Source: Chloroflexota bacterium (GTDB lineage: Bacteria; Chloroflexota; Dehalococcoidia; Dehalococcoidales; UBA2162). From it: a stretch of 64,000 nucleotides of DNA. Below, in pieces: positions 25,108 to 56,068 of this stretch. The notes beneath the pieces are model-generated. The model worked only from the letters and a program-made list of their open reading frames with translations. It searched no databases and was not told the DNA's origin. The stretch spans positions 241 to 64,240 of the forward strand of contig JACPPR010000030.1 in the NCBI GenBank assembly GCA_016190895.1. The letters run 5' to 3'. How positions within the stretch are numbered: position 1 is the stretch's first letter; each line of letters opens with the position of its first letter. The position numbers were made by a program, and so were the translations under genes.

Positions 25108-25160
25108 TTGTTTGTCCTTCGTAATACTACAAATACTACCAATGTCAAATACTACAAATA
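25108..25160. repeat. AT-rich word repeat (TACTACAAATA type)
   Basis: Reverse-complement similarity to 54365-54398. Confidence 0.6.
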
Positions 25161-31727: not shown

Positions 31728-31756
31728 TTGACATATTAGCTACAATATGTTAGCTT
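31728..31756 (+). promoter_or_regulatory. Promoter-like element of the glutamate synthase/hisHF cluster
   Basis: TTGACA (31728-33), 17-nt spacer ending in TGT, TAGCTT (31751-56). The spacer holds the inverted repeat CATATT-N6-AATATG (31732-49). Confidence 0.4.
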
Positions 31757-31812
31757 AAGAGACGGAAACTCATTACCGCTAACGGGCTGTGCAGAGAGGG
31801 GTTTTGTTCAAT

Positions 31813-32256
31813 ATGAAGCGAGTTTTTATCAAGGAAAAAGTCTGTATGGGCTGTCACCTGTGCGAGGTGTATTGCCAGCAGCAGCACTCCAAATCGAAGG
31901 ACCTGATTAAAGCCTTTAAGACGGAAACCCCTCGTCCGTTACCGAGAGTCAGGATGGAGGCGAAAGGCTCCGTATCCTTCTCCGTGCGCTGCCAGCATTG
32001 CGCCGATGCTCCCTGTACTCAAGCCTGTCTTACCGGCGCTCTCAGCAAAGACCCCGTTACGGGAGTGGTTCTAGTGGATACCGAGAAGTGCGTCGGCTGC
32101 TGGACCTGTATCCTGGTTTGTCCCTTCGGAGCCATCAGGCGGGATGAAGAGCAGGGTAAAGCTGTCAAGTGCGACCTCTGTCGTGGGAGACCAACGCCGG
32201 CCTGCGTGGATAATTGTCCTAATGAGGCGCTGATATTTGCCGAAGCCGAAAGCTGA
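31813..32256 (+). CDS. 4Fe-4S dicluster ferredoxin-type subunit (electron-input module of split glutamate synthase)
   Basis: Cys motifs CMGCHLCEVYC, CQHCADAPC, CVGCWTCILVCP and CDLCRGRPTPACVDNCP. Start at ATG 31813. Confidence 0.8.
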   Translation: MKRVFIKEKVCMGCHLCEVYCQQQHSKSKDLIKAFKTETPRPLPRVRMEAKGSVSFSVRCQHCADAPCTQACLTGALSKDPVTGVVLVDTEKCVGCWTCILVCPFGAIRRDEEQGKAVKCDLCRGRPTPACVDNCPNEALIFAEAES

Positions 32257-32271
32257 TGTGAGAGAGAAGAA

Positions 32272-32898
32272 GTGATTGCGGTAATCGATTACGGCGCCGG
32301 CAATCTGCGCAATGTGGCTAATGCCATCAGCAGGTTGGGCTATGAGCCTAAGATAACCGGTGACCCGGCCGAAGTTTTTAATGCCCAGGCGGTTGTCTTG
32401 CCCGGGGTGGGCGCGGCGGCCGATGCCATGTCTAATCTGGCGAAGCTGAAGCTGGTGCGCCTGATTCGCCGGATTATCGATGAAGATAAGCCTTTTCTGG
32501 GTGTCTGCCTTGGTCTACAGGTGCTCTTTACGGGTACTGAAGAGGGCGGCTGGCACGAGTGTCTCGGCATTATACCGGGAAGCGTGCGGAAACTGCCGGC
32601 CGGGCTGAAGATACCTCATATGGGCTGGAACCAGGTCAGGCAAAAGATGACGCACCCGATTTTTGAGGGTGTGCCGGATGAGGCTAATTTTTACTTCGTG
32701 CATAGCTATTATGCCGAGCCGGAGGACAAATCGTTGGTCGCCGGTGAAACCGATTACGGCATTCCGTTCTGCAGCGTCATCGCCCGGGGAAACCTGGTAG
32801 CAACCCAGTTCCATCCGGAGAAGAGCGGCGAGCTGGGGCTGAAGATTTATGATAATTTCATCAAGCTTGCTCTTGGAGCGAAGGCAGGCCGTAACTAA
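32272..32898 (+). CDS. hisH: Imidazole glycerol phosphate synthase, glutamine amidotransferase subunit
   Basis: IAVIDYGAGNLRNV, GVCLGLQ, QFHPEKS; GTG start. Confidence 0.9.
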   Translation: MIAVIDYGAGNLRNVANAISRLGYEPKITGDPAEVFNAQAVVLPGVGAAADAMSNLAKLKLVRLIRRIIDEDKPFLGVCLGLQVLFTGTEEGGWHECLGIIPGSVRKLPAGLKIPHMGWNQVRQKMTHPIFEGVPDEANFYFVHSYYAEPEDKSLVAGETDYGIPFCSVIARGNLVATQFHPEKSGELGLKIYDNFIKLALGAKAGRN

Positions 32899-32927
32899 TG
32901 CGAGTTTGGAAGTGACGTAAGCAATTT

Positions 32928-33015
32928 CCTCTCCCTTGAGGGGAGAGGTTAGGTGAGGGTGATATGATTCTGTGACCCCTCACCCTTATTCCCTCTCCCG
33001 CAAGGGGAGAGGGAG
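32928..33015. repeat. GGGAGAGG-hairpin repeat family, symmetric double copy
   Basis: CCTCTCCCttgaGGGGAGAGG ... CCCTCTCCCgcaaGGGGAGAGGG, with inner inverted repeat GGTGAGGGTG/CCCCTCACCC. Confidence 0.75.
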
Positions 33016-33034
33016 ATTGGATGGCTGAGAGAAA

Positions 33035-34405
33035 ATGGCTACTAAAAAGATAGAGAAAGTAAAATACCTGATTATCGGGAACTCGGCGGGAGGCATCGGG
33101 GCGGTGGAGGCTATCCGTGAGAAAGACAAGACGGGGACGATTGCCATCATCTCGGACGAGCCTTACCCGGCTTACTCACGGCCGCTCATCTCACCCTATC
33201 TGGCTCACGAGCGCACTCTGGAGAGTATGCTCTACCGCCCGGCTGATTTCTATGAAAAGAATAGCGTCCAGGCTTTTCTGGGCGTCAAAGTGGAGCGGCT
33301 CGACCTGGAGAACCATGCCATCGACCTGGCGGACAAAGGCAGAATCGAGTGGCAGAAGCTCTTGCTGGCTACAGGCGGGGTGCCGATTTTCCCCAAGACC
33401 GAAGGCAGCGACCTGAAAGGCGTCTTTACCTTTACCACCCTGGATGATGCTAAAGTTATCGACAAGTTCCTGGGTAAGCCCCTTCGACAAGCTCAGGGCA
33501 AGCCCTCAAAGAAAAAGGTGAAAGCGGTGGTTATCGGCGGCGGCCTTATCGGGGTCAGCGTCACCGAAGCCCTGGTCAAACGCGGGGTTGCTGTAACCAT
33601 CGTCGAGCTGAGGGAGCGGGTGCTGAATGTCATTCTCGATGAAGTCGCCTCGGCTTTGGCTGATGAAGCCCTGAAGAAGGTCGGCGTTAAGATTGTCACC
33701 GGTCACACGGTAAGTAAAATAACGGGCGATTCGGCGGGCAATGTGGCCGGCGCTATTTTCGATGATGGCAAAGAACTGCCCTGCGATATGGTGATTGTCG
33801 CCATCGGCGTCCAGCCCCGCCTGGAACTGGTGAAAGATACAGGGATAAAGGTGAACCGCGGTATTGTAGTCGACCGTCATATGACTACTTCTAATCCGGA
33901 TGTTTACGCCTGCGGGGATGTCGCCGAGGCTTATGATTTTGTTCTCGGGATAAACCGGCTCACCCCCATATGGCCCAATGCCTATGTCGGGGGCAGAGTC
34001 GCCGGCTTGAATATGGCGGGCGTCCCGACCGATTACCCGGGCGGCACGGCGATGAACTCTTCGCACTACTTCGGCGTTAGCGTTGTCTCGGCAGGGGTAG
34101 TCACTCCCACGGGCGATGGTTATGAGGAACTCAGCGCCCGCAGCGACCATTCTTACAAGAAGGTCCTTGTGAAAGACGGGCTGGTGGTGGGCATGGTCTT
34201 CAGCGGCGACATCGAGAAAGCGGGCATAATTTACAATTTGATAAAAGACAAAGTGAAGGTAGAGGCTTTCAAGCAAACTCTTGTCGCCAGTGATTTCGGT
34301 TTGCTCTCTTTGCCTGAAGAGAGGTGGCGGCCGAAACTGGAATTGCCGGCCAAGGCAGCCCCTTCAGCAGCCTCTGGCAAGAGTGGTTCTCCCACAGGGC
34401 ACTAA
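33035..34405 (+). CDS. FAD-dependent NAD(P)H oxidoreductase (NirB/rubredoxin-reductase/Nox-like)
   Basis: Two Rossmann motifs (IIGNSAGGIGA, VIGGGLIGVSV) and YSRPLIS. Contains a repeat-derived segment at 33479-33506. Confidence 0.82.
   Translation: MATKKIEKVKYLIIGNSAGGIGAVEAIREKDKTGTIAIISDEPYPAYSRPLISPYLAHERTLESMLYRPADFYEKNSVQAFLGVKVERLDLENHAIDLADKGRIEWQKLLLATGGVPIFPKTEGSDLKGVFTFTTLDDAKVIDKFLGKPLRQAQGKPSKKKVKAVVIGGGLIGVSVTEALVKRGVAVTIVELRERVLNVILDEVASALADEALKKVGVKIVTGHTVSKITGDSAGNVAGAIFDDGKELPCDMVIVAIGVQPRLELVKDTGIKVNRGIVVDRHMTTSNPDVYACGDVAEAYDFVLGINRLTPIWPNAYVGGRVAGLNMAGVPTDYPGGTAMNSSHYFGVSVVSAGVVTPTGDGYEELSARSDHSYKKVLVKDGLVVGMVFSGDIEKAGIIYNLIKDKVKVEAFKQTLVASDFGLLSLPEERWRPKLELPAKAAPSAASGKSGSPTGH
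33479..33506 (+). repeat. Same 28-nt repeat unit inside the FAD oxidoreductase CDS
   Basis: CCCCTTCGACAAGCTCAGGGCAAGCCCT, encoding PLRQAQGKP. Confidence 0.8.
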
Positions 34406-34430
34406 TACTGATTAGGCAGGGATGTAGCTA

Positions 34431-35570
34431 ATGGAAGATTTACAAAAGATTAACAATCCTTACGGTGCCGATAAGGTAATCGATTCCTGTTCCATCTTCG
34501 GAATGATGGATACCTCGGGGCGCCGGTTCTCCGGCGAGGACATCACCAAGGCGATTGCCAATATGCACTTCAGGGGCAACGGTCTGGGGGGCGGGCTGGC
34601 TGTCTACGGTATTTATCCCGATTATGCCGACCATTACGCCTTTCATATTATGTACCTGAGCCCGCAGGGACAGCAGCAAACGGAGGCTTTCCTGAAGGAC
34701 AAATTCTACATGGTCAAAGCTGAGGAAGTGCCGATGCGGCCGATTCCGGCGATTGTCAATCCGCCGGCAGTCTGGCGCTACTTCCTCGATGTCAAGCAGG
34801 ACAGGCGCGGCGCTGAATCTGCCGACGACTATGTAGTCGAGCGGGTGATGGATATCAATACCAAGCTGAAAGACAGCTTTGTTTTCTCCAGCGGCAAGAA
34901 TATGGGCGTGTTCAAGGGAGTCGGGTATCCGGAGGAGATATCCGAATACTTCCGTCTGGAAGAATATGAAGGTTATCTCTGGACTGCCCACGGCCGTTTC
35001 CCGACCAACACGCCGGGCTGGTGGGGGGGCGCTCACCCGTTCAGTATTCTCGATTGGACGGTGGTTCACAACGGAGAGATTTCCTCTTACGGCATCAACC
35101 GCCGCTACCTGGAGCAGTTCGGCTATCAGTGCACGATGCAGACCGATACCGAGGTGGTCGCTTACGCTATCGACCTTCTCATTCGCAGGCATAACCTGCC
35201 CATCGAAATAGCGGCCGAGGTGCTGGCGGCGCCCTTCTGGAGCGATATCGAGCGGATGCCGCCGAAGGAGCAGAAGCTGGCCCGCACTCTGCGACAGGTC
35301 TATCCCGGTCTGCTACTGAACGGGCCGTTCACGATAATTATTGCCCACAATGGCGAAATGATCGGCCTTACCGACCGAATCAGGCTGAGACCCCTGACCG
35401 TAGGTGTCAACGGTAACATGATATATCTCTCCTCGGAGGAGGCCGCCATCCGTCTTATCAGTCCCGAGCTTGACGCCGCCTGGATTCCGAGCGGTGGCGA
35501 GCCGATTATCGGCCGGCTGGGAGTCCAGCTAAAACCGGAACCGTCCGTTGTTAGTGGAGCCAGGTTATAA
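34431..35570 (+). CDS. Class II glutamine amidotransferase, GltB domain-1-like subunit
   Basis: [34 protein letters not shown]. Confidence 0.82.
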
Positions 35571-35571
35571 G

Positions 35572-36354
35572 ATGCTGACCAAGAGGATTATCCCCTGTCT
35601 CGATGTGAAAAATGGCCGGGTGGTCAAGGGAGTCAAGTTCCGCGACCACCGTGATGCCGGTGACCCTGTCGAATTGGCTGCCTTCTATAACGAGCAGGGG
35701 GCTGACGAGCTTGTTTTTTATGATATTACCGCCTCCAGTGATGGGCGGGAAATTATGAGAGAGGTAGTAGAGCGCACCGCCGGTCAGGTATTTATTCCGC
35801 TGACTGTGGGTGGCGGGCTGCGCACTGTGGAGGATATCCGGCAGATGTTAGCAGCCGGCGCCGATAAAGTTTCTATCAATACGGCGGCAGTGCTAGACCC
35901 AGATTTTATTACCCGGGGCGCCGAGCGGTTCGGCAACCAGTGTATCGTTCTGGGGATGGATGCCCGGCGTGTTCCGGGGTCGAACCCGACTCGCTGGGAG
36001 GTGTTCACGCATACCGGGGCAGATGGCGGCCGAACTTCCGGCAGGGATGCTGTGGAGTGGGCTATCGAGGCCGTCAAAAAAGGCGCTGGCGAGATAGTTG
36101 TTAATAGCATCGATGCCGATGGCACTCAGGCCGGCTACGACCTGGAGTTGCTCCGGTCCATTTCCGAGGCAGTCAGCGTGCCCGTAGTGGCTAGCGGCGG
36201 CGCCGGACAGCCTGAAGATTTGTATCAAGCCCTGGTCTCCGGTAAAGCCGATGCTGTGCTGGCAGCCACCATCTTTCATTACGGGACTTATTCGATTAAC
36301 GATGTTAAAGAGTACCTGAGGAAAAAACAAATAGCGGTGCGCGCAAGAGGCTAA
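35572..36354 (+). CDS. hisF: Imidazole glycerol phosphate synthase, cyclase subunit
   Basis: [23 protein letters not shown] ... [21 protein letters not shown] 35572 lies 1 nt after the upstream stop. Confidence 0.92.
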
Positions 36355-36359
36355 ATTAA

Positions 36360-36408
36360 GGTAGCGCAGGCGTCCTCGCCTGTGCTTGCAGGCGGGATGC
36401 CTGTAATA
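36360..36408. repeat. Same hairpin family
   Basis: GCGCAGGCGtcctCGCCTGTGC plus a second hairpin, after hisF. Confidence 0.75.
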
Positions 36409-36460
36409 CCGAGAGGTGAAGAAGTAAAAGACCGATTGAGGTTGGGGTGGAGTAGGAATA

Positions 36461-37966
36461 ATGAAAACGTTTTTACCTGCTAAATTCAAAGTAGACAGGA
36501 GCTCAGACCGGTGCATTCAGTGTCAGGTCTGTGTTAACCAGTGCAGCTTCGATGTCCATTATTATGACGCCGAAGACAACGAAGTGCGCAGCCGCGAAGA
36601 GAATTGCGTCGGTTGCCACCGTTGCGCCATCTTCTGCCCGGCCCGCGCCCTGACCATCAGCCGGAACCCGATGGACTATCGGGATAATTTGAACTGGCGT
36701 GGCGAAACTATCGAGGATATCTTCAAACAGGCGGAAACCGGCGGTATGCTTCTGACCGGTATGGGTGACGACAAAGGGCAGCGCATCTACTGGGACCATT
36801 TGGTCTTGAATGCTAGCCAGGTTACCAATCCATCTATCGACCCGCTGCGGGAACCGATGGAGTTGGTCACCTATATCGGGCGCAAACCCGACCGGGTGAC
36901 CATCGACCCGGTGACTCGTGAACTGAAGACGGATTTAGCTCCGCAAATCAAACTGGAAATACCGGTGATGTTTTCGGCGATGTCTTACGGCGCCGTCAGC
37001 CTTAATGTGCAGGAGTCTCTTGCCAGGGCGGCCACCGAGTTCGGCACCCTGTGGAACACGGGCGAGGGCGGGCTTCAATCTAGCCTGTTCAAGTATGGCA
37101 AGAACACCATCGTCCAGGTGGCATCGGGACGTTTCGGAGTGCACTCCGATTACCTAAATGCCGGACAGGTGGTTGAGATAAAGATTGGTCAGGGCGCCAA
37201 GCCCGGTATCGGCGGCCACCTGCCGGGGGAGAAGGTGAGCCTGGATGTTTCACTCACCAGGATGATACCCCAGGGCACCGATGCTCTGTCACCGGCGCCA
37301 CAGCACGATATCTACTCCATCGAGGACCTGGCGCAGTTGGTCTATGCCCTGAAAGAAGCCACCAATTACACCAAACCCATCTCGGTGAAGATTGCTGCCG
37401 TCCACAATGCGGCGGCTATTGCCAGCGGTATGGTCAGAGCTGGCGCCGATATCATTTGTCTTGACGGCCTGAGGGGAGCTACCGGAGCCGCTCCCAAGGT
37501 GATTCGTGACAATGTCGGCATTCCCATCGAGATGGCGCTGGCGGCGGTGGATTCCCGCCTGAGACAGGAAGGTATCCGTAACCAGGCTTCGGTAGTCATT
37601 GCCGGCGGTATTAGAAGCGCCGGTGACGTGGCTAAGGCGATTGCCCTGGGGGCGGACGCTGTTTACATCGGGACGGCGGCTCTGATTGCACTGGGCTGCC
37701 ATGTCTGCCAGCAGTGTCACACAGGCAAATGCGCCTGGGGTATCTGCACCTCCGACCTGGGTCTGACCAAGAGAATCAATCCTGACATCGGCGCCCAGAG
37801 ACTGGTCAATTTGTTGCGCGCCTGGAGTCTGGAGCTGAAAGATATTCTCGGCGGCCTGGGCGTCAATGCCCTGGAAAGCCTGAGGGGCAACCGCTTGCAC
37901 TTGCGGGGCATCGGACTGACTGATACCGAACTGGATATCCTCGGCGTAAAGATGGTAGGAGCTTAG
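36461..37966 (+). CDS. Glutamate synthase FMN-binding (GltB domain 2) subunit with N-terminal 2x[4Fe-4S]
   Basis: CIQCQVCVNQC, CVGCHRCAIFCP, KIGQGAKPGIGGHLPG, LRGATGAAP. Confidence 0.88.
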   Translation: MKTFLPAKFKVDRSSDRCIQCQVCVNQCSFDVHYYDAEDNEVRSREENCVGCHRCAIFCPARALTISRNPMDYRDNLNWRGETIEDIFKQAETGGMLLTGMGDDKGQRIYWDHLVLNASQVTNPSIDPLREPMELVTYIGRKPDRVTIDPVTRELKTDLAPQIKLEIPVMFSAMSYGAVSLNVQESLARAATEFGTLWNTGEGGLQSSLFKYGKNTIVQVASGRFGVHSDYLNAGQVVEIKIGQGAKPGIGGHLPGEKVSLDVSLTRMIPQGTDALSPAPQHDIYSIEDLAQLVYALKEATNYTKPISVKIAAVHNAAAIASGMVRAGADIICLDGLRGATGAAPKVIRDNVGIPIEMALAAVDSRLRQEGIRNQASVVIAGGIRSAGDVAKAIALGADAVYIGTAALIALGCHVCQQCHTGKCAWGICTSDLGLTKRINPDIGAQRLVNLLRAWSLELKDILGGLGVNALESLRGNRLHLRGIGLTDTELDILGVKMVGA

Positions 37967-37967
37967 A

Positions 37968-38729
37968 ATGACAAAAACAGCCGGCAATTCGGTAGTAAAA
38001 ATAGATACCACGGGCATTTTATATAAAGAGCTTAATGCTCGACTGAGGGAGATAGCTTCGGATAGTGTCGAGAAGGTCGAGCTTTACAATGTCTGCGGGC
38101 AGAGATACATCGGCACGGACCTGAACAGGCCGATTCAGATTGATATCTACGGCACGCCTGGCAACGACCTGGGCGCTTTTATGAACGGGCCGAAGATTGT
38201 CGTACACGGCAATGCCCAGGACGGCTGCGGCAACACTATGAATGAGGGCGAAATAATCGTTCACGGACACGCCGGAGATGTCCTCGGCCTATCGGCGCGC
38301 GGTGGCAAAATCTTCGTCCGTGATTACGTCGGTTATCGAGCCGGCATTCATATGAAAGAGTATAAGGAAAAGAAACCGACGCTGGTTATCGGCGGTACTG
38401 CTCAGGATTTTGCCGGTGAGTATATGGCCGGAGGCGTGCTGGTTCTACTAGGTCTGAATCTCGCTGAAGGGGAGAAACACAAGGCAAAATACATCGGCAC
38501 CGGTATGCACGGCGGTGTTATTTACCTTAGGGGCGAGGTCGAGAAGTACCAGTTAGGCCCTGAAGTTGGCGTCGCCGAACTGGATGAGAAGGACAATCAA
38601 GTTCTACGGACGCTGGTCGGTGAGTTCGCCGGCCACTTCGGGTATCCGGCTGACAAGATACTGAACCATAAGTTTATGAAACTGTATCCTCGCTTTCTTC
38701 GCCCTTACGGAAGGCTTTACGCTTATTAA
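37968..38729 (+). CDS. Glutamate synthase GXGXG (GltB C-terminal beta-helix) subunit
   Basis: VHGNAQDGCGNTMNEGEIIVHGHAGDVLG repeats. Confidence 0.85.
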   Translation: MTKTAGNSVVKIDTTGILYKELNARLREIASDSVEKVELYNVCGQRYIGTDLNRPIQIDIYGTPGNDLGAFMNGPKIVVHGNAQDGCGNTMNEGEIIVHGHAGDVLGLSARGGKIFVRDYVGYRAGIHMKEYKEKKPTLVIGGTAQDFAGEYMAGGVLVLLGLNLAEGEKHKAKYIGTGMHGGVIYLRGEVEKYQLGPEVGVAELDEKDNQVLRTLVGEFAGHFGYPADKILNHKFMKLYPRFLRPYGRLYAY

Positions 38730-38762
38730 TCTGAAGGTGCCGGTCATTTGTGGGGGTAGGTT

Positions 38763-39437
38763 ATGCTGCGCCTGCTGATTATAGCCCCGGAAAGTAAGGC
38801 ACTGGCGGAGCTGGCCACCGCCCTGAACCAAAAAGATATTGCCTGTGCAACGGCATCTCCTGACGGTGAAATGACGGAGTTAATCGCCCGTCAATCTCCG
38901 GATTTGGTTATGGTTGAGGTGGGCGGGCGTTTTCCAGATTCAGCCACGTGGGAGCTTATTCACGGAATAAAGCGCGAGCGTTCTCTACCGGTTATCGCTC
39001 TGGTAGCCGGCGAAGTGTCCGAAGAAATCAACGGCTATTTTGAAGTAGATGATTTTCTTGTTCGCCCCTACGATCTCAGCGAACTGCTAATCAGAGCCAA
39101 GCGGCTGCTGCAGAACTGCAAGGCTGTCAGCGGCAGCGAGCTGATTAAGTGTGACGGCCTGGTGATAGACGTGACGAATTGCGATGTGACGGTGGGCGGG
39201 AAAGTCGTCGAGCTTACCTTCAAGGAGTACGAGTTATTGAAGCTGCTGGCGGCGAACCGGGGCCGGGTTTACACCCGTCAGGACTTGCTCAACAAAATCT
39301 GGGGCTATGACTACTACGGCGGTGACAGGACTGTCGATGTCCACGTCAGGCGCCTCAGAAGCAAGATAGAAGGACCCGGTGAGGTCTTCATCGAGACAGT
39401 CAGAAACGTCGGCTACCGGTTTAAGAAAGACGCCTGA
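38763..39437 (+). CDS. OmpR/PhoB-family winged-helix regulator with degenerate (pseudo-)receiver domain
   Basis: The C-terminus is typical (LTFKEYELLKLLAANRGRVYTRQDLL...TVDVHVRRLRSKIE...VRNVGYRF). The receiver lacks the canonical residues: LLIIAPES replaces the DD pocket, PDLVMVEV replaces the phospho-Asp, ALVAG replaces Thr, and VRPY replaces Lys-Pro. Confidence 0.85.
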   Translation: MLRLLIIAPESKALAELATALNQKDIACATASPDGEMTELIARQSPDLVMVEVGGRFPDSATWELIHGIKRERSLPVIALVAGEVSEEINGYFEVDDFLVRPYDLSELLIRAKRLLQNCKAVSGSELIKCDGLVIDVTNCDVTVGGKVVELTFKEYELLKLLAANRGRVYTRQDLLNKIWGYDYYGGDRTVDVHVRRLRSKIEGPGEVFIETVRNVGYRFKKDA

Positions 39438-46478: not shown

Positions 46479-47890
46479 ATTCAACGGAAGTCATAAAGTT
46501 TGCTAAAGAGAAGGGCTGTCAGTTTGTCGACCTCAAGTTCATCGACCTGCCCGGCACCTGGCAGCATTATACTCTGCCTATCAGCGAGCTAAATCAGGAC
46601 CTCTTCGAGGAGGGTAACGGTTTTGACGGTTCTTCGATAAGGGGCTTTCGGCATATCAACGAAAGCGATATGTTGCTGATTCCCGACCCGGCGACGGCTA
46701 TCTGCGACCCGGTACTGGAAGTGCCGACATTGAGCCTGATTTGCGACGTGCGTGACCCGCTCACGGGCAAGGACTACGAGCGTGACCCGCGTAATATCGC
46801 CAAGAAGGCTGAAGCTTATCTGAAGACGACGGGCATTGCCGAGGGTAGTTACTGGGGTCCCGAACTGGAATTTTTCATATTCAACAGCATACGTTTCGAG
46901 CAAAACAGCCATGTCGGCTTCTATGCCATCGATTCCCAGGAGGGCATCTGGAACTCAGGTAATGGCGAGCACAGTAATCTGGGCTACCGCCCCCGTCACA
47001 AGGAAGGCTACTTCCCGGTGCCGCCTACCGACCAGACACACGATATCCGTACTAAAATCGCCCTCAAAATGATGGAGGGTGGTTTGAAGATTGAAAAGCA
47101 TCATCATGAGGTTGCCACTGCCGGACAGGCTGAGTTCGGTATCCGCTTCGATACCCTGACCAGGCAGGCGGATAATGTTATGCTCTACAAGTACATTGCT
47201 AAGAACGTGGCTGTGCAGAATGGCTTTACGGTGACATTCATGCCCAAGCCGCTTTTCCAGGACAATGGTTCAGGAATGCACGTACATCAGAGTCTCTTCA
47301 AGGGCGACAAGAACGTTTTCTACGATGCGAAGGGCTATGCCCTGCTTTCCCAGACGGCTAAACATTATATAGGCGGGCTGCTGGCACATTCACCGGCTTT
47401 GCTGGCGCTCTGCGCTCCGACCACCAACTCTTACCGCCGGCTCGTCCCCGGTTACGAGGCTCCCATCAATCTGGTTTACTCGGCAAGTAACCGCAGCGCC
47501 AGCATTCGTATTCCTCAGTACTCGACCAGTCCGAAGACCAAGAGAATCGAGTACCGCTGCCCGGATTCGAGCAGCAATCCGTATCTGGCCTTCGCCGCCA
47601 TGCTGCTGGCTGGCCTGGATGGCATCAAGAATAAGATTGACCCCGGCGAGCCTATCGACAAGGATATTTATGAGCTTGCGCCGGAAGAAAAGGCCAATAT
47701 CAAGTCAACGCCCGGCTCACTGCTCGAGGTACTGGATGCCCTCCGCGAAGACCATGATTTCCTTCTGAAGGGTGATGTCTTTACCGAGGACCTCATCGAG
47801 ACCTGGATAAACTACAAGAGAAAGAATGAGTATGACCAGGTCGCCCTGCGACCCCATCCCTACGAGTTCCATCTGTACTACGATATTTAG
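46475..47890 (+). CDS. glnA: Glutamine synthetase type I (471 aa)
   Basis: FDGSSIRGF, GSGMHVHQSLF, NSYRRLVPGYEAP. Confidence 0.95.
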   Translation: MNSTEVIKFAKEKGCQFVDLKFIDLPGTWQHYTLPISELNQDLFEEGNGFDGSSIRGFRHINESDMLLIPDPATAICDPVLEVPTLSLICDVRDPLTGKDYERDPRNIAKKAEAYLKTTGIAEGSYWGPELEFFIFNSIRFEQNSHVGFYAIDSQEGIWNSGNGEHSNLGYRPRHKEGYFPVPPTDQTHDIRTKIALKMMEGGLKIEKHHHEVATAGQAEFGIRFDTLTRQADNVMLYKYIAKNVAVQNGFTVTFMPKPLFQDNGSGMHVHQSLFKGDKNVFYDAKGYALLSQTAKHYIGGLLAHSPALLALCAPTTNSYRRLVPGYEAPINLVYSASNRSASIRIPQYSTSPKTKRIEYRCPDSSSNPYLAFAAMLLAGLDGIKNKIDPGEPIDKDIYELAPEEKANIKSTPGSLLEVLDALREDHDFLLKGDVFTEDLIETWINYKRKNEYDQVALRPHPYEFHLYYDI

Positions 47891-50980: not shown

Positions 50981-51050
50981 GCTGACACTGGCTCTAACTT
51001 GTGGTATGATAACGTTGAATCATCCATGGGTTAGGAGGGCCAGTGTCAGC
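50981..51050 (+). promoter_or_regulatory. 12-bp perfect stem enclosing the SD and covering the start codon of glnA2
   Basis: GCTGACACTGGC (50981-92) is the exact reverse complement of GCCAGTGTCAGC (51039-50). GTG start at 51043; SD AGGAGG at 51033-38. Confidence 0.5.
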
Positions 51051-52386
51051 TAAAGATAGGGCTGAATCCTGCGGTTATGTCCTGAAAATGGCCAAGGAGC
51101 ATGATGTCAAGTTCATCAGGCTCTGGTTCACCGATATCCTTGGGGTCCTGAAAAGCTTTGCCATTACTGTAGAAGAGCTTGAAGAGGCTCTGGCCGAGGG
51201 GAAGGGGTTCGATGGCTCTTCTATCGAGGGCTTCGCCCGCATCGATGAAAGCGATATGGTGGCCCTGCCCGACCCGGATACCTTCCGTCTGATTCCCTGG
51301 CGGCCACGGGAACACCACGCCGTCGCCCGTATGTTCTGCGACGTCCTTAAACCGGGCGGGCAGATTTTCGAGGGCGACCCGAGATATGTCCTCAAGAGAA
51401 ATCTGAAACGGGCTGCCGAATTGGGCTATACCTACTACGTCGGCCCCGAGTTGGAGTTTTTCTATTTCAAGAGCGCCAATGCCACTGAGACTCTGGATGC
51501 CGGCGGCTATTTCGACCTGATGCCGTTGGATGTCGCCACCGACCTGAGGCGAGATACGGTTCTCACCCTCGAAGAGATGGGCATCGGCGTCGAGTATTCC
51601 CATCACGAAGTGGCGCCCAGCCAGCATGAAATAGATATGAGGTATACCGATGCCCTGACTATGGCTGATAATGTCATGACCTACCGCCTGGTCGTGAAGC
51701 AAATCGCTCTGCAGCACGGCGTCTACGCCACCTTTATGCCCAAGCCGGTTTTCGGTATCAATGGCAGCGGTATGCACGTTCACCAGTCTCTCTTTAAGGG
51801 TGGCAAGAATGCCTTCTTCGATAGGAAAGACAAATATTACCTGTCTAAATTAGCCAAGGGCTACATTGCTGGCTTGCTGAAACATGCCCCCGAAATCACC
51901 TCTGTTACCAGTCAGTGGGTCAATTCTTACAAGCGGCTGGTGCCTGGCTATGAGGCGCCGGTCTATCTCTCCTGGGCGCGGCGCAACCGTTCTGATTTGA
52001 TTCGAGTTCCCGAGTATAGGCCGGGCCGGGAAAACGCCACGCGCATCGAGTACCGCTCGCCGGACCCGGCTTGCAACCCCTACCTCACCTTCAGTGTTAT
52101 GCTGGCTGCCGGGCTGGATGGGATTGAAAAGGGATTGGAACCGCCTGAGCCGGTCGAAGAAAACGTCTACGAGATGTCCGAAGAGGAAAGAAAAGCGAGA
52201 GGAATAGTGACTTTACCCTCTAGCCTTGCTGAGGCTATCGAGCTGACCGAGAAAAGTGAGTTGGTGAGAAAAGCCCTCGGCGACCATGTTTTCAATGCTT
52301 TTATTGCCAATAAAAAGATAGAGTGGGATAACTACCGCACTCAGGTGACCGAATACGAAATTAAGAGGTACCTGCCTATATTGTAA
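51043..52386 (+). CDS. glnA: Glutamine synthetase type I (447 aa, alpha-like)
   Basis: FDGSSIEGF, GSGMHVHQSLF, NSYKRLVPGYEAP; GTG start. Confidence 0.93.
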   Translation: MSAKDRAESCGYVLKMAKEHDVKFIRLWFTDILGVLKSFAITVEELEEALAEGKGFDGSSIEGFARIDESDMVALPDPDTFRLIPWRPREHHAVARMFCDVLKPGGQIFEGDPRYVLKRNLKRAAELGYTYYVGPELEFFYFKSANATETLDAGGYFDLMPLDVATDLRRDTVLTLEEMGIGVEYSHHEVAPSQHEIDMRYTDALTMADNVMTYRLVVKQIALQHGVYATFMPKPVFGINGSGMHVHQSLFKGGKNAFFDRKDKYYLSKLAKGYIAGLLKHAPEITSVTSQWVNSYKRLVPGYEAPVYLSWARRNRSDLIRVPEYRPGRENATRIEYRSPDPACNPYLTFSVMLAAGLDGIEKGLEPPEPVEENVYEMSEEERKARGIVTLPSSLAEAIELTEKSELVRKALGDHVFNAFIANKKIEWDNYRTQVTEYEIKRYLPIL

Positions 52387-52560
52387 ATCCGAAATTCTAG
52401 TATCGAAATCCGAAACAAATCCAAATTACAAAATCCAAATGCCAAATAAAGCCTAAATGCTTGAATGCCAAGTTCACAAAGGGCGTGGTCATTTTAGCTT
52501 TGATATTTGGCATTTATTTGAACTTTGAGCTTTGGATTTTGAGTTTCGCCGGAGGTCATT
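52387..52560. repeat. AT-rich word repeat, long imperfect palindrome
   Basis: CAAAATCCAAATGCCAAATA ... TATTTGGCATTT ... TTTGGATTTTG. Confidence 0.7.
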
Positions 52561-52563
52561 AAT

Positions 52564-54300
52564 ATGCACCGTCTACGGGTTGGTATGGCTCAGATGAACG
52601 CTACCGTGGGCGATTTTGCCGGTAACACACGGAAGATTCTGGACATTATCTCTCAAGCCAGGGCTTTAGAGGTGGACATGCTCACTTTTCCTGAGCTTGC
52701 CATCTGCGGCTACCCGCCGGAAGACCTGCTTTTCAAGCCCAAGTTTATCGAGGAAAACCTGCGTTTCCTGAACAAAGTCATAGAAGCTTCGGCCGGAATT
52801 ACTCTTGTCGTCGGCTTCGTCGATGCCAAAGAGGATATCTACAACGCAGCGGCAATCGTCCATGATGGCAAGCTGGTCAGCGCTTATCACAAGATTTACC
52901 TGCCTAACTACGGCGTCTTCGATGAAGACCGTTACTTCCGGGCCGGCGCCAGCAGCGAATGCCCGGTGTACACGATCGCCGGAGTGGGCATCGGCATTAA
53001 TATTTGTGAAGATATATGGTACGAAGCAGGGCCGACCTCTATCCAGGCCTATGCCGGGGCCGAGGTAATCGTTAATATCAGCGCCTCGCCGTTTCATTAC
53101 GGCAAAGGAAACGCCCGGGAGAGAATGCTAGCCACCCGCGCCTCGGACAATGTGTCGGTCGTTGTTTTCAACAACCTGGTTGGCGGCCAGGACGAGCTGG
53201 TTTTCGATGGCAACAGCCTTATCCTGGACGAGAAAGGGCAGGTCATTGCCCGCGGCAAGCAGTTCGAGGAAGACCTGATTATAGCCGACCTTGAGATTGA
53301 GTCCGTCTTCAGGACTCGTTTGCATGACCCGCGGTGGCGGAAAGAGAAGCTGCTCGCGGAGCAGAGAGGCGGCGGCATCAGGGTGATGGTATCGGAAGCG
53401 CCCGTCTCGCTCACCAAACCGCCGCTACCAGCGAGACAGGTTATAACCAAACCTCTTCTCGGCGAGGTCTATGACGCCCTCGTGCTCGGCACCCGCGATT
53501 ACGTCCGCAAGAACGGCTTTAAGAAGGTGCTGATGGGACTCTCCGGGGGCATAGATTCCAGTCTGGTGGCAACCATCGCCACCGATGCCCTGGGCAAGGA
53601 CAATGTGGTCGGCATCTCGATGCCTTCCCGGTATTCCTCGGAGGGCAGCGTTACCGATGCCGAGCTTCTGAGCAAGAACCTGGGTATCAAGCTGAAGACC
53701 ATACCCATCGAGGAAATCTTCCAGGCTTACCTGAATACGCTGATGCCTCAATTCGAGGGGAAAGAACCGGACGTTACCGAGGAGAATATCCAGGCCCGTA
53801 TCCGGGGCAATATCCTGATGGCGCTGTCCAACAAGTTCGGCTGGCTGGTGCTGGCTACGGGGAACAAAAGCGAGATGGCTACCGGCTTCACCACCCTTTA
53901 TGGCGATATGGCAGGCGGTTTTTCCGTCATCAAGGATGTCCCAAAAACAATGGGCTACGAGCTTGCCAAGTACCGAAACTCGGTGGCTGGTTATGAGCTG
54001 ATACCCTCGGCTATTATCGGCAAAGCTCCTTCTCCGGAGTTGAAGCCCGAGCAGAAGACTACCGATACTTTGCCGCCTTACCCCCGGCTCGACCCCATCC
54101 TGATGGCATATGTGGAAGAAGACAAGAGCGTCGAGCAGATAATCGCCGCCGGGCATGATGAAGCAACTGTTAGACGCGCGGCGCAGTTGGTTGACAGGAG
54201 CGAGTACAAGCGTCGCCAGGCGCCCCCCGGTGTTAAGATAACCCCCCGGGCCTTCGGCCGGGATAGAAGACTGCCGATTACCAACCGGTTTAAGGGATAA
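52564..54300 (+). CDS. nadE: Glutamine-dependent NAD+ synthetase
   Basis: N-terminal CN-hydrolase (FPELAICGYPPEDL, INICEDIW) plus PP-loop GLSGGIDSS. Confidence 0.93.
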   Translation: MHRLRVGMAQMNATVGDFAGNTRKILDIISQARALEVDMLTFPELAICGYPPEDLLFKPKFIEENLRFLNKVIEASAGITLVVGFVDAKEDIYNAAAIVHDGKLVSAYHKIYLPNYGVFDEDRYFRAGASSECPVYTIAGVGIGINICEDIWYEAGPTSIQAYAGAEVIVNISASPFHYGKGNARERMLATRASDNVSVVVFNNLVGGQDELVFDGNSLILDEKGQVIARGKQFEEDLIIADLEIESVFRTRLHDPRWRKEKLLAEQRGGGIRVMVSEAPVSLTKPPLPARQVITKPLLGEVYDALVLGTRDYVRKNGFKKVLMGLSGGIDSSLVATIATDALGKDNVVGISMPSRYSSEGSVTDAELLSKNLGIKLKTIPIEEIFQAYLNTLMPQFEGKEPDVTEENIQARIRGNILMALSNKFGWLVLATGNKSEMATGFTTLYGDMAGGFSVIKDVPKTMGYELAKYRNSVAGYELIPSAIIGKAPSPELKPEQKTTDTLPPYPRLDPILMAYVEEDKSVEQIIAAGHDEATVRRAAQLVDRSEYKRRQAPPGVKITPRAFGRDRRLPITNRFKG

Positions 54301-54400
54301 ATCAAATAATACCAATACTACCAATAAGTACCAATATTTGAGTAATTCAATATTTGTTGAATTATTTGTAGTATTTGACATTTGTAGTATTGGTAGTATT
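54301..54400. repeat. AT-rich word repeat / palindrome upstream of nrpR
   Basis: AATACCAATACTACC ... ATTCAAtatttgTTGAAT ... GTAGTATTGGTAGTATT. Contains TTGACA at 54375-80. Confidence 0.65.
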
Positions 54401-54405
54401 TTTCT

Positions 54406-55401
54406 ATGGTGCAAAAAATCAGTTCTGACGGGGAAAGGAAGCTCCTGGCGATTCTGAAGGTGCTTAGTGAATCTTCAGAACCGCTCGGTTCGGCCACCAT
54501 CGCCCGCGAGCTTGAGCGCTACGGCATTTACCTGAGCGAGCGCGGGGTCAGGTATAACCTGAAGCTAGCCGATGAGCGCGGCTATACCCAGCCGATGGGC
54601 CGTGACGGGCGGATGATTACCACTCAGGGCTTGCAAGAACTGACGGCGGCGCTGGCTCCCGAGCGGGTTGGTTTCGTCCTCGAAAAACTGGAACTGCTTG
54701 CCTTTCAGACCACTTTCGACCCGGCAAAACGCACCGGCCGGGTGCCGATAAATACCTCGCTCATCGATAAGAGCCAGTTCAAGAAAGCGCTCGCGGTAAT
54801 GGGCGCCGCTTTCAAGGCCGGAATCTGCGTCAGCGACCTGGTGGCTACCGCCTCAGAGGGTGAAAAGCTCGGCTCGGTAGTCGTGCCCCCTGGTAAAATC
54901 GGCCTGGCGACAGTCTGCAGCGCCACCATTAACGGCGTGCTGCTAAAAGCTGGCGTGCCCGTCGAGTCGAAGTTCGGCGGCGTGCTTGAAGTCAGGAAAT
55001 CTCAGCCCAGCCGTTTTGTGGCTATCATCAACTATTCCGGCACCTCGCTCGACCCTTCCGAGCAGTATATCCGCGCCCGGATGACCAGCGTCGGCAAGGT
55101 CATCACTACCGGGAGTGGGCGGCTGCTGGCCAATTTCAGGGAGATGCCGGCCCTATCGAGGGCGCTGGCTGAGGAGAAAATCGCCCAACTCAAGGCGGCG
55201 GGGATTGGTGGGGTCTACGCCCTTGGCAATACCAGCGAGCCGCTCTGCCAGATTCCGGTCGGTCTCAACCGCGTGGGGATGGTGCTGCTGGGCGGCTTGA
55301 ATCCGATAACTCTCGCCGTCGAGGCAGGCATCGAGATTGACAACATCGCCGAAAGCGGGCTGGTTGATTTCGAGCGACTGGTTAGCTTTTGGAAAATTTA
55401 G
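54406..55401 (+). CDS. nrpR: NrpR-like nitrogen regulatory protein (wHTH + one NrpR/DUF128-type domain)
   Basis: 331 aa with LAILKVLSESSEPLGSATIARELERYGIYLSERGVRYNLKLADERGYT..GRDGRMITTQGLQEL and GLATVCSATINGVLLKAG. Family assignment is from memory of COG1693-type proteins. Confidence 0.7.
   Translation: MVQKISSDGERKLLAILKVLSESSEPLGSATIARELERYGIYLSERGVRYNLKLADERGYTQPMGRDGRMITTQGLQELTAALAPERVGFVLEKLELLAFQTTFDPAKRTGRVPINTSLIDKSQFKKALAVMGAAFKAGICVSDLVATASEGEKLGSVVVPPGKIGLATVCSATINGVLLKAGVPVESKFGGVLEVRKSQPSRFVAIINYSGTSLDPSEQYIRARMTSVGKVITTGSGRLLANFREMPALSRALAEEKIAQLKAAGIGGVYALGNTSEPLCQIPVGLNRVGMVLLGGLNPITLAVEAGIEIDNIAESGLVDFERLVSFWKI
55318..55401 (+). repeat. Direct repeat copy 1 (functional 3' end of nrpR)
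   Basis: 77/84 nt identical to 55985-56068, in register including the TAG stop. Confidence 0.9.
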
Positions 55402-55984: not shown

Positions 55985-56068
55985 GTCGAGGCAGGCATCG
56001 AGATTGACAACATCGCCGAAAGCGGGTTGGTTGATTTTGAGCGACTGGTGAGCTTCTGGAGACTGTAG
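55985..56068 (+). pseudogene. Orphan duplicate of the last 27 codons of nrpR
   Basis: Encodes VEAGIEIDNIAESGLVDFERLVSFWRL*, versus ...FWKI* in nrpR. No upstream coding continuity. Confidence 0.85.

Follow-up and report, generated by a model that had tools for sequence, protein, structure and literature searches.

A bacterial NrpR with a single sensor domain and its probable operator at a glutamate synthase promoter in Dehalococcoidia

We analysed a 64,000 nt stretch of DNA (hereafter the window) from a Chloroflexota bacterium (GTDB: Dehalococcoidia; Dehalococcoidales; UBA2162). It comprises forward-strand positions 241 to 64,240 of contig JACPPR010000030.1, from a metagenome-assembled genome (MAG; GCA_016190895.1, 2.09 Mb, 79% complete). 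The open reading frame at 54406-55401 (nrpR) is a true bacterial member of the NrpR family, of the type with one sensor domain. We consider it likely that its product is a functional repressor acting at a palindromic site in front of a glutamate synthase operon, ~22.6 kb upstream of nrpR. To our knowledge, NrpR has been studied only in methanogens, and the bacterial copies have been annotated by domain alone. A literature search on what bacterial NrpR binds found nothing, and NrpR was mentioned together with Dehalococcoides-type bacteria only in a table. The features discussed here are listed in Table 1.

The first-pass annotation, made by a model from the DNA letters, had described the 331-aa protein as an N-terminal winged helix followed by one NrpR-type sensor domain, and had proposed a hidden Markov model search. 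This search assigned the protein to NrpR (PF01995 plus the winged helix PF08461), and sequence and fold comparisons agreed. PF01995 (NRD1_2) matched over its full model length, with 267 bits against a cut-off of 25, and no NCBIfam model matched the protein. The winged helix contained the helix LSER(G/A)VRY(N/H)L, conserved in the alignment with relatives. The N-terminus MVQ was conserved as well, in support of the annotated start. An AlphaFold model, for which 17 relatives were used, had a mean pLDDT (predicted local distance difference test) of 87.6, with three helices and a beta hairpin (H-H-H-strand-strand) in the winged helix. The sole sequence match in the PDB was 3NEK, the NrpR domain MJ0159 of Methanocaldococcus jannaschii (phmmer, E 7e-26). 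The model matched the same structure in Foldseek, with a template modelling (TM) score (target) of 0.89-0.92, a root-mean-square deviation of 2.2-2.3 Å, 30% identity and an E-value of 2e-21. The runner-up (3e-06) was fifteen orders of magnitude weaker. MJ0159 is the only solved relative; its 238-residue chain covers the sensor domain alone, without the winged helix.

Two cysteines, C171 and C281, were invariant among the 17 relatives and C141 nearly so; C171 aligned with a cysteine of MJ0159. In Methanococcus maripaludis, the conserved Cys148 is needed for the response to 2-oxoglutarate. Against three close relatives, the ratio of non-synonymous to synonymous substitutions (dN/dS) of nrpR was 0.05-0.06, indicating strong purifying selection. 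PF01995 had a single match in the genome, that is, no second gene of the family was found in this 79% complete MAG.

NrpR is a known, annotated family and ordinary in this lineage. A survey of its distribution in bacteria, also proposed by the first-pass annotation, found PF01995 in a third of the class (99 genomes out of an even draw of 301 Dehalococcoidia) and in the whole sampled order (17 of 17 genomes, including complete single-contig genomes of 1.4-2.1 Mb). Outside the class, ~2% of the genomes in a sample of the phylum had it (5 genomes). The protein database holds more than 6,400 NrpR homologues, some already named "NrpR regulatory domain-containing", and the occurrence of NrpR in "certain Bacteria" is on record (PMC2723118). 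Relatives were present on at least 594 stretches of species-representative genomes; the 80 closest, used below as the nrpR subfamily set, came nearly all from Dehalococcoidia MAGs. Three MAGs labelled Syntrophobacter or Deltaproteobacteria (L209, L224, L231) carried an NrpR 72-74% identical to the window protein, which is more likely to reflect mis-binning or mislabelling than transfer.

The regions upstream of nrpR were compared at 30 loci across the class. At 18 of them, AGGAAA-N4-TTTCCT or a close variant lay directly after the -10 box (16 clear cases, a degenerate site at L015 and a perfect one at L030, in the scoring matrix). Wherever nrpR headed a transcription unit, the palindrome followed the -10 box by no more than a few bases. 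Six loci had the perfect form (L005, L010, L016, L017, L026, L030), and AGG(C/T)AA-N4-TT(T/G/A)CC variants were found in about ten further nrpR loci. Dehalococcoides-like genomes had GGCAA-N4-TTGCC at the nrpR promoter. Dehalogenimonas-like genomes (L093, L095, L097, L098, L099) had GGCAA-N14/15-TTGCC, in which the distance between the half-sites is greater by one helical turn; the ferredoxin-operon sites of these same genomes, described below, were degenerate (L305-L307). AGGAAA-N4-TTTCCT equals the methanogen operator GGAA-N6-TTCC, which was defined experimentally for NrpR of M. maripaludis and lies there close to the transcription start (PMC2723118).

Five genomes contained the perfect 16-mer, four of them in a single copy and one in two, and all five had it at nrpR's own promoter; the extra copy, in G198, sat within coding sequence. 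A larger regulon marked by this 16-mer was sought in 13 genomes and rejected, as one-mismatch matches were no commoner than those of the reversed control pattern. Downstream of operator-bearing nrpR genes came either a hisF-family gene, at 3-5 nt, or directly a gene with a glutamate synthase domain. The hisF-family gene was followed by a glutamate synthase-domain protein, a glutamate dehydrogenase or an FAD oxidoreductase (Pfam), and hisG genes were also among the conserved partners of nrpR. Judged by their promoters, many Dehalococcoidia nrpR copies look autoregulated. The autoregulation site is absent from the window protein's own subfamily.

A perfect GGAA-N6-TTCC occurred only once in the window, at 47002 inside the glnA1 coding sequence, a frequency expected by chance (of 100 shuffled sequences, 76 also had one or more). 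The earlier remark that no perfect copy is visible in the intergenic regions was thus correct for perfect copies, but a candidate operator with one mismatch lies at a distance from the gene. This candidate, ACGGAAACTCATTACCGC, was scored with a position weight matrix (PWM) trained solely on nrpR-promoter sites, with a score of at least 11 as the cut-off for presence. The PWM gave few matches in the window, the candidate among them. Its start coincides with the transcription start predicted for the glutamate synthase operon, 5 nt after the promoter TTGACA-N17-TAGCTT and 34 nt before the ATG of the first gene, which encodes a ferredoxin. No internal promoter or terminator above chance was found in the operon, and 34 nt separate its GXGXG gene from the gene of the OmpR/GlnR-like regulator.

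Conservation of the site was assessed in 80 metagenomic loci with ferredoxin identities of 57-87%, searching up to 130 nt upstream of the ferredoxin gene. A site at or above the cut-off was present in 47 of the 80, compared with 2.4% of random segments from the same loci. All but one of the 47 sites lay 36-75 nt before the ATG, most of them at -41 to -51; the remaining one was at -126. Their consensus was GCGGTAAC-CG-GTTACCGC. The window site was in register with the palindrome of the relatives, whose invariant columns were CGG.A.....TT.CCG. TTGACA fell in invariant or nearly invariant columns at 14 of 15 aligned loci, the exception being L119 (TTAGCT). The distance from TTGACA to the site is 28 nt in the window; most sites fell in the range of 28-31 nt, and 28 nt was the commonest distance after a class of 13 loci at 22 nt. 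Based on this comparison of sequences, 31762-31779 is the probable NrpR operator of the glutamate synthase operon.

Other matches were discarded. A high-scoring site inside hisH (32278-32295, GCGGTAATCGATTACGGC) was attributed to chance: it encodes the conserved AVIDYG motif, its DNA was not conserved in 48 relatives, and it scored only 4.2 with an independent matrix. Two genome-wide matrix matches had no promoter context: C45:14624 lies before pnp inside hairpins resembling repetitive extragenic palindromes (REP), and C32:11121 after a terminator. Two further observations concern the ferredoxin-operon promoters. In the window, the promoter spacer (31735-31755) contains TTAGCT-N8-TTAGCT overlapping the imperfect palindrome AGCTACAATATGTTAGCT, which could be the site of a second regulator. 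In ten relatives (L159, L161, L167, L170, L179, L180, L188, L190, L191, L198), ACCAAC-CA-CTTGGCT (CCAA-N4-TTGG) replaces GGnAA-N4-TTnCC after TATAAT, ~93 nt before the ATG; it may be a variant operator or belong to a different regulator.

The occurrence of the operon was tied to that of the regulator. Across the 301 genomes, the ferredoxin orthologue and NrpR were found together in 52, the orthologue without NrpR in 11, NrpR without the orthologue in 47, and neither in 191 (odds ratio 19, p 3e-20). The two genes were usually on one contig, ~7 kb apart. Among genomes bearing the ferredoxin orthologue, the operator, scored with the independent matrix at the cut-off of 11, was present in 14 of 20 with NrpR versus 1 of 11 without (p 0.002), and the lone NrpR-negative genome with an operator was a 66%-complete MAG.

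The palindrome might instead be a 5'-terminal mRNA hairpin affecting stability or translation, or the site of another regulator, with NrpR acting elsewhere or on other targets. It begins at about +1 and would therefore be transcribed, a 7-bp stem could form, and the promoters of the classical NrpR targets glnA and amt have no such site. However, among 34 distinct sites GG.AA and TT.CC were invariant and the paired positions never changed in a compensatory manner. The variable pair was neither Watson-Crick nor G-T in 16 of them. Both features indicate protein half-sites rather than a nucleic-acid hairpin. Moreover, the same palindrome stands on nrpR's own promoters, matches the experimentally defined archaeal operator, and is missing from 10 of the 11 genomes in which the operon is present without nrpR. 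We therefore regard this alternative as very improbable and retain the assignment as an NrpR operator.

The regulator gene itself follows an unusual spacer. The 105-nt interval between nadE and nrpR is filled by an AT-rich inverted-repeat element with 22-nt arms of 91% complementarity (repeat search). The corresponding RNA is predicted to form a single long hairpin (54304-54401, -31 kcal/mol, z -4.5) with UUUUCU after it, and the element thus looks like a terminator for glnA2-nadE. The family has five copies in the genome, of ~85-100 bp and all between co-directional genes; the other four precede rseP, a TPR-gyrA pair, a cysE-like gene and nifU. Four full copies begin where the upstream gene ends, at its stop codon, and the rseP copy is a half-element overlapping the dxr stop. 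All five end in promoter-like TGnTAnnnT / TTGAYA motifs, and these elements may be portable terminator-plus-promoter units. Since the element also precedes non-nitrogen genes and was not found in the nadE-nrpR spacers of relatives, including the closest ones, its repeats were rejected as an NrpR operator. A small palindrome at 54343-54364, TAATTCAA-N6-TTGAATTA, was also rejected, being part of the hairpin tip of the repeat and not a GGnAA-type site.

The spacers of the closest relatives were 9 nt, 66 nt or 264 nt long, with unrelated repeats, and from this comparison the spacer appears to be a recurrent landing site for repeats. The 264-nt spacer of a close relative with 89% identity (L200/L201) was packed with GC-rich REP-like hairpins, including GGCAATC-N15-GATTGCC. 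Other relatives had one of two forms: a spacer of 24-39 nt with AGGAG, or an extended -10 promoter (TGnTATAAT), ~40 nt ahead of the ATG, combined with the ribosome-binding site GAGG. The latter form carried no NrpR-like site (32 subfamily loci with nadE upstream). At loci L203-L282, the nrpR leader after TGnTATAAT often had a conserved ...(C/G)(A/G)GTCTATC..., ~20-45 nt before nrpR.

The first-pass annotation had noted that nrpR lacks a Shine-Dalgarno (SD) sequence and that TTGACA-N16-TATTTT ends 3 nt before its ATG. Both observations held: no purine-rich SD was present within 20 nt before the ATG (...TTGGTAGTATTTTTCT-ATG), and a promoter scan recovered the element in this position, as one of 2 promoter-like sites in the upstream region where 0.7 were expected. 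Its predicted start, near 54409, is the G of codon 2 (GTG). The extended -10-like TGGTAGTAT would have its canonical +1 at the A of the ATG (54406), which by geometry would give a truly leaderless mRNA. The promoter candidate abutting the ATG lies within the repeat element, which is specific to this genome and has taken the place of the usual spacer. A leaderless or near-leaderless nrpR mRNA is plausible from this geometry, and nrpR is probably expressed in this way from a promoter inside the element. A literature search for leaderless mRNAs in Dehalococcoidia found nothing.

Several points weigh against a functional repressor at the glutamate synthase promoter. The window site is weak, with a PWM score of 11.1 compared with 16-27 for the nrpR-promoter sites, and its right half is TTACC, not TTTCC. 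In contrast to methanogens, no site is present at the promoters of glnA and amt in the window. Upstream of glnA and amt in 14 genomes of the same order no convincing site was found, and GTAAC-type boxes were present instead; the predicted regulon is thus small, unlike the archaeal one. With a completeness of 79%, the MAG may also lack a partner protein or further targets. Finally, nrpR would have to be expressed here without an SD and from behind a long terminator-like hairpin that has a U tract and stops 4 nt short of the ATG. In relatives nrpR has an SD and mostly its own TGnTATAAT promoter. One could therefore suppose that the repeat element has replaced promoter and SD, that nrpR is silenced or weakly expressed and decaying, and that the operator, more degenerate in the window than in most loci, is a relic. 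Yet the frame is intact and of full length, and the low dN/dS against the closest relatives does not suggest decay. The repeat element holds two well-placed promoter candidates, one of which would start transcription precisely at the A of the ATG, and the close relative with the 9-nt spacer (L199) likewise has no SD. We consider such a decaying nrpR quite unlikely, and a working repressor remains the preferred explanation.

We infer the following mode of action. A dimer or higher oligomer of NrpR would bind GGnAA-N4-TTnCC (= GGnA-N6-TnCC) through its winged helices. The bound palindrome would be the one that begins at +1 of the ferredoxin-hisH-glutamate synthase-hisF-glnR-like operon, where NrpR would block bacterial RNA polymerase when nitrogen is sufficient. 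Under nitrogen limitation, 2-oxoglutarate would bind the sensor domain and free the repressor, by analogy with the archaeal proteins; its release of NrpR in methanogens is summarised in PMC11957540 and PMC9765008. Glutamate synthase (GOGAT) and glutamate dehydrogenase (GDH) consume 2-oxoglutarate, which makes it a physiologically sensible effector. The conserved partners of the gene (hisH/hisF-like genes, nadE, glutamate synthase, glutamate dehydrogenase and hisG) would also suit a regulator of the NrpR fold that senses another ligand, such as glutamine, glutamate, or an intermediate of the histidine or NAD pathway. Such a protein would coordinate glutamine-amidotransferase pathways (hisHF, nadE, GOGAT) and not general nitrogen status. 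This is unlikely, though somewhat less so than a decaying gene. Conservation with the archaeal sensor domain is strong (30% identity, TM 0.9), 2-oxoglutarate would be the natural signal since GOGAT and GDH consume it, and archaeal homologues of differing architecture all respond to 2-oxoglutarate, as cited in PMC11957540.

The coexistence of NrpR with a GlnR-like OmpR-type regulator, pointed out by the first-pass annotation, was found again in relatives, where both are kept in one block. The GlnR-like gene is the last of the predicted NrpR operon and no internal promoter or terminator above chance intervenes, so that the two circuits may be hierarchical and not merely parallel. The GlnR-like activator would have boxes at amt promoters, placing NrpR above the second circuit. 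GlnR-like boxes also precede glnA-nadE-nrpR in relatives, which would close a feedback loop. In the full scheme, an archaeal-type NrpR driven from the repeat cassette as a leaderless mRNA would stand atop a cascade. It would control the GOGAT operon and thereby the GlnR-like activator, which would switch on amt-glnK-glnA and, in relatives, glnA-nadE-nrpR. We put this scheme forward tentatively and find it rather doubtful as a whole.

The position of nrpR next to glnA2-nadE, as first annotated, was confirmed by Pfam and NCBIfam and is kept in relatives. Relatives with 79-80% identity had a split glutamate synthase, the OmpR-like regulator, glnA, nadE and nrpR, and then an Rrf2 sulfur cluster. 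Synteny of glnA-nadE-nrpR was seen at L034, L036-L038 and L200, and nadE was directly upstream of nrpR in 32 of the 80 closest species representatives. The spacer between glnA2 and nadE (52387-52563) is filled by a different repeat family with similar architecture, in which AAATCCGAAA-type units stand in tandem at the left and TTTGGATTT units are inverted at the right. Downstream, two copies of the nrpR 3' end (55318-55401 and 55985-56068) flank a hicB-hicA cassette, and the duplicate appears to have been left by insertion of this cassette. The distal copy (...SFWRL*) was nearer to the relatives than the working copy (...SFWKI*). At L035, nrpR is immediately followed by genes for a HicB-like antitoxin and a resolvase, with no hicA called. 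Together with the duplication here, this makes the nrpR 3' end seem an integration hot spot.

Table 1 Coordinates of nrpR, its candidate operator and predicted target, and neighbouring features (positions in the window unless another contig is named).
Feature	Position	Strand	Remarks
nrpR	54406..55401	+	331 aa, ATG start; winged helix plus one NrpR regulatory domain; PF08461 + PF01995
Winged-helix DNA-binding domain	54448..54642	+	residues 15-79; PF08461, E 1.2e-16
NrpR regulatory (sensor) domain, single	54667..55380	+	residues 88-325; PF01995, E 1.2e-79
Candidate NrpR operator ACGGAAACTCATTACCGC	31762..31779	.	PWM score 11.1; core GGAA-N6-TACC at 31764-31777
Promoter TTGACA-N17-TAGCTT of ferredoxin-hisH-glutamate synthase operon	31728..31756	+	direct reading; alignment of relatives
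Predicted target operon	31813..39437	+	Pfam; eight genes in the order Fer4_11 ferredoxin, hisH-like glutamine amidotransferase (GATase), FAD oxidoreductase, GltB amidotransferase, hisF-like, GltB FMN domain, GXGXG, OmpR/GlnR-like
OmpR/GlnR-like regulator	38763-39437	+	Trans_reg_C 1e-27; degenerate receiver domain scoring under cut-off
glnA2-nadE	51043..54300	+	precedes nrpR here and in relatives; TIGR00653 and NF010588
glnA2, type I glutamine synthetase	51043-52386	+	Pfam, NCBIfam
nadE, glutamine-dependent NAD synthetase	52564-54300	+	Pfam, NCBIfam
AT-rich inverted-repeat element, 105 nt	54301..54405	+	fills nadE-nrpR spacer; 9-10 nt units TACCAATAC / GTAGTATTG
Copies of the element	window 25123-25156; 54301-54405; G000 C73:7222-7312; C81:28382-28527; C81:33175-33332		
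Promoter-like TTGACA-N16-TATTTT	54375..54402	+	ends 3 nt before ATG; predicted start near 54409
Extended -10-like TGGTAGTAT	54391..54399	+	direct reading; relatives use TGnTATAAT promoters
Duplicate of nrpR 3' end, 84 nt	55985..56068	+	77/84 identical to 55318-55401; encodes ...SFWRL*

NrpR of M. maripaludis, which represses nif, glnA and glnK-amtB, is alike in its winged helix and NrpR regulatory domain (NRD) fold, its palindromic operator and its control of nitrogen assimilation. It has two NRDs (NRD1 and NRD2 in Pfam), whereas the window protein has one. Its operator belongs to an archaeal TATA/TFB promoter, whereas that of the window follows a bacterial -35/-10. In Dehalococcoidia, NrpR is predicted to act on its own gene and on glutamate synthase, hisHF and GDH operons, and not on glnA, amt and nif as in M. 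maripaludis. Closer in architecture is NrpRI of Methanosarcina, which has one winged helix and one NRD, as is the case for M. mazei NrpRI. Methanosarcina also possesses NrpRII, a second protein that lacks the helix and makes contact with archaeal transcription factors. The MAG of the window has one PF01995 gene only, and bacteria have neither TBP nor TFB with which such a protein could interact. Release of M. mazei NrpRI by 2-oxoglutarate is cited in PMC11957540. In methanogens nrpR is reported to be constitutive and not nitrogen-regulated (PMC9765008), in contrast to the many Dehalococcoidia copies that are seemingly autoregulated; the window subfamily, without an autoregulation site, matches the constitutive methanogen pattern. 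The regulator encoded at the end of the predicted NrpR operon resembles the family of actinobacterial GlnR, an orphan OmpR-type activator. GlnR is unrelated to NrpR in fold and in DNA site, which consists of direct-repeat boxes.

Dehalococcoidia matter in the subsurface, in marine sediments and in bioremediation. With the family itself already known, what is added here is a conserved operator and a predicted target within the same window. The data suggest how an archaeal repressor design may work on a sigma-70 promoter, with the operator at +1, just after the -10 box. By these data, the step under NrpR control would be glutamate synthase and not glnA, amt or nif, and the two unrelated nitrogen regulators may form a hierarchy.

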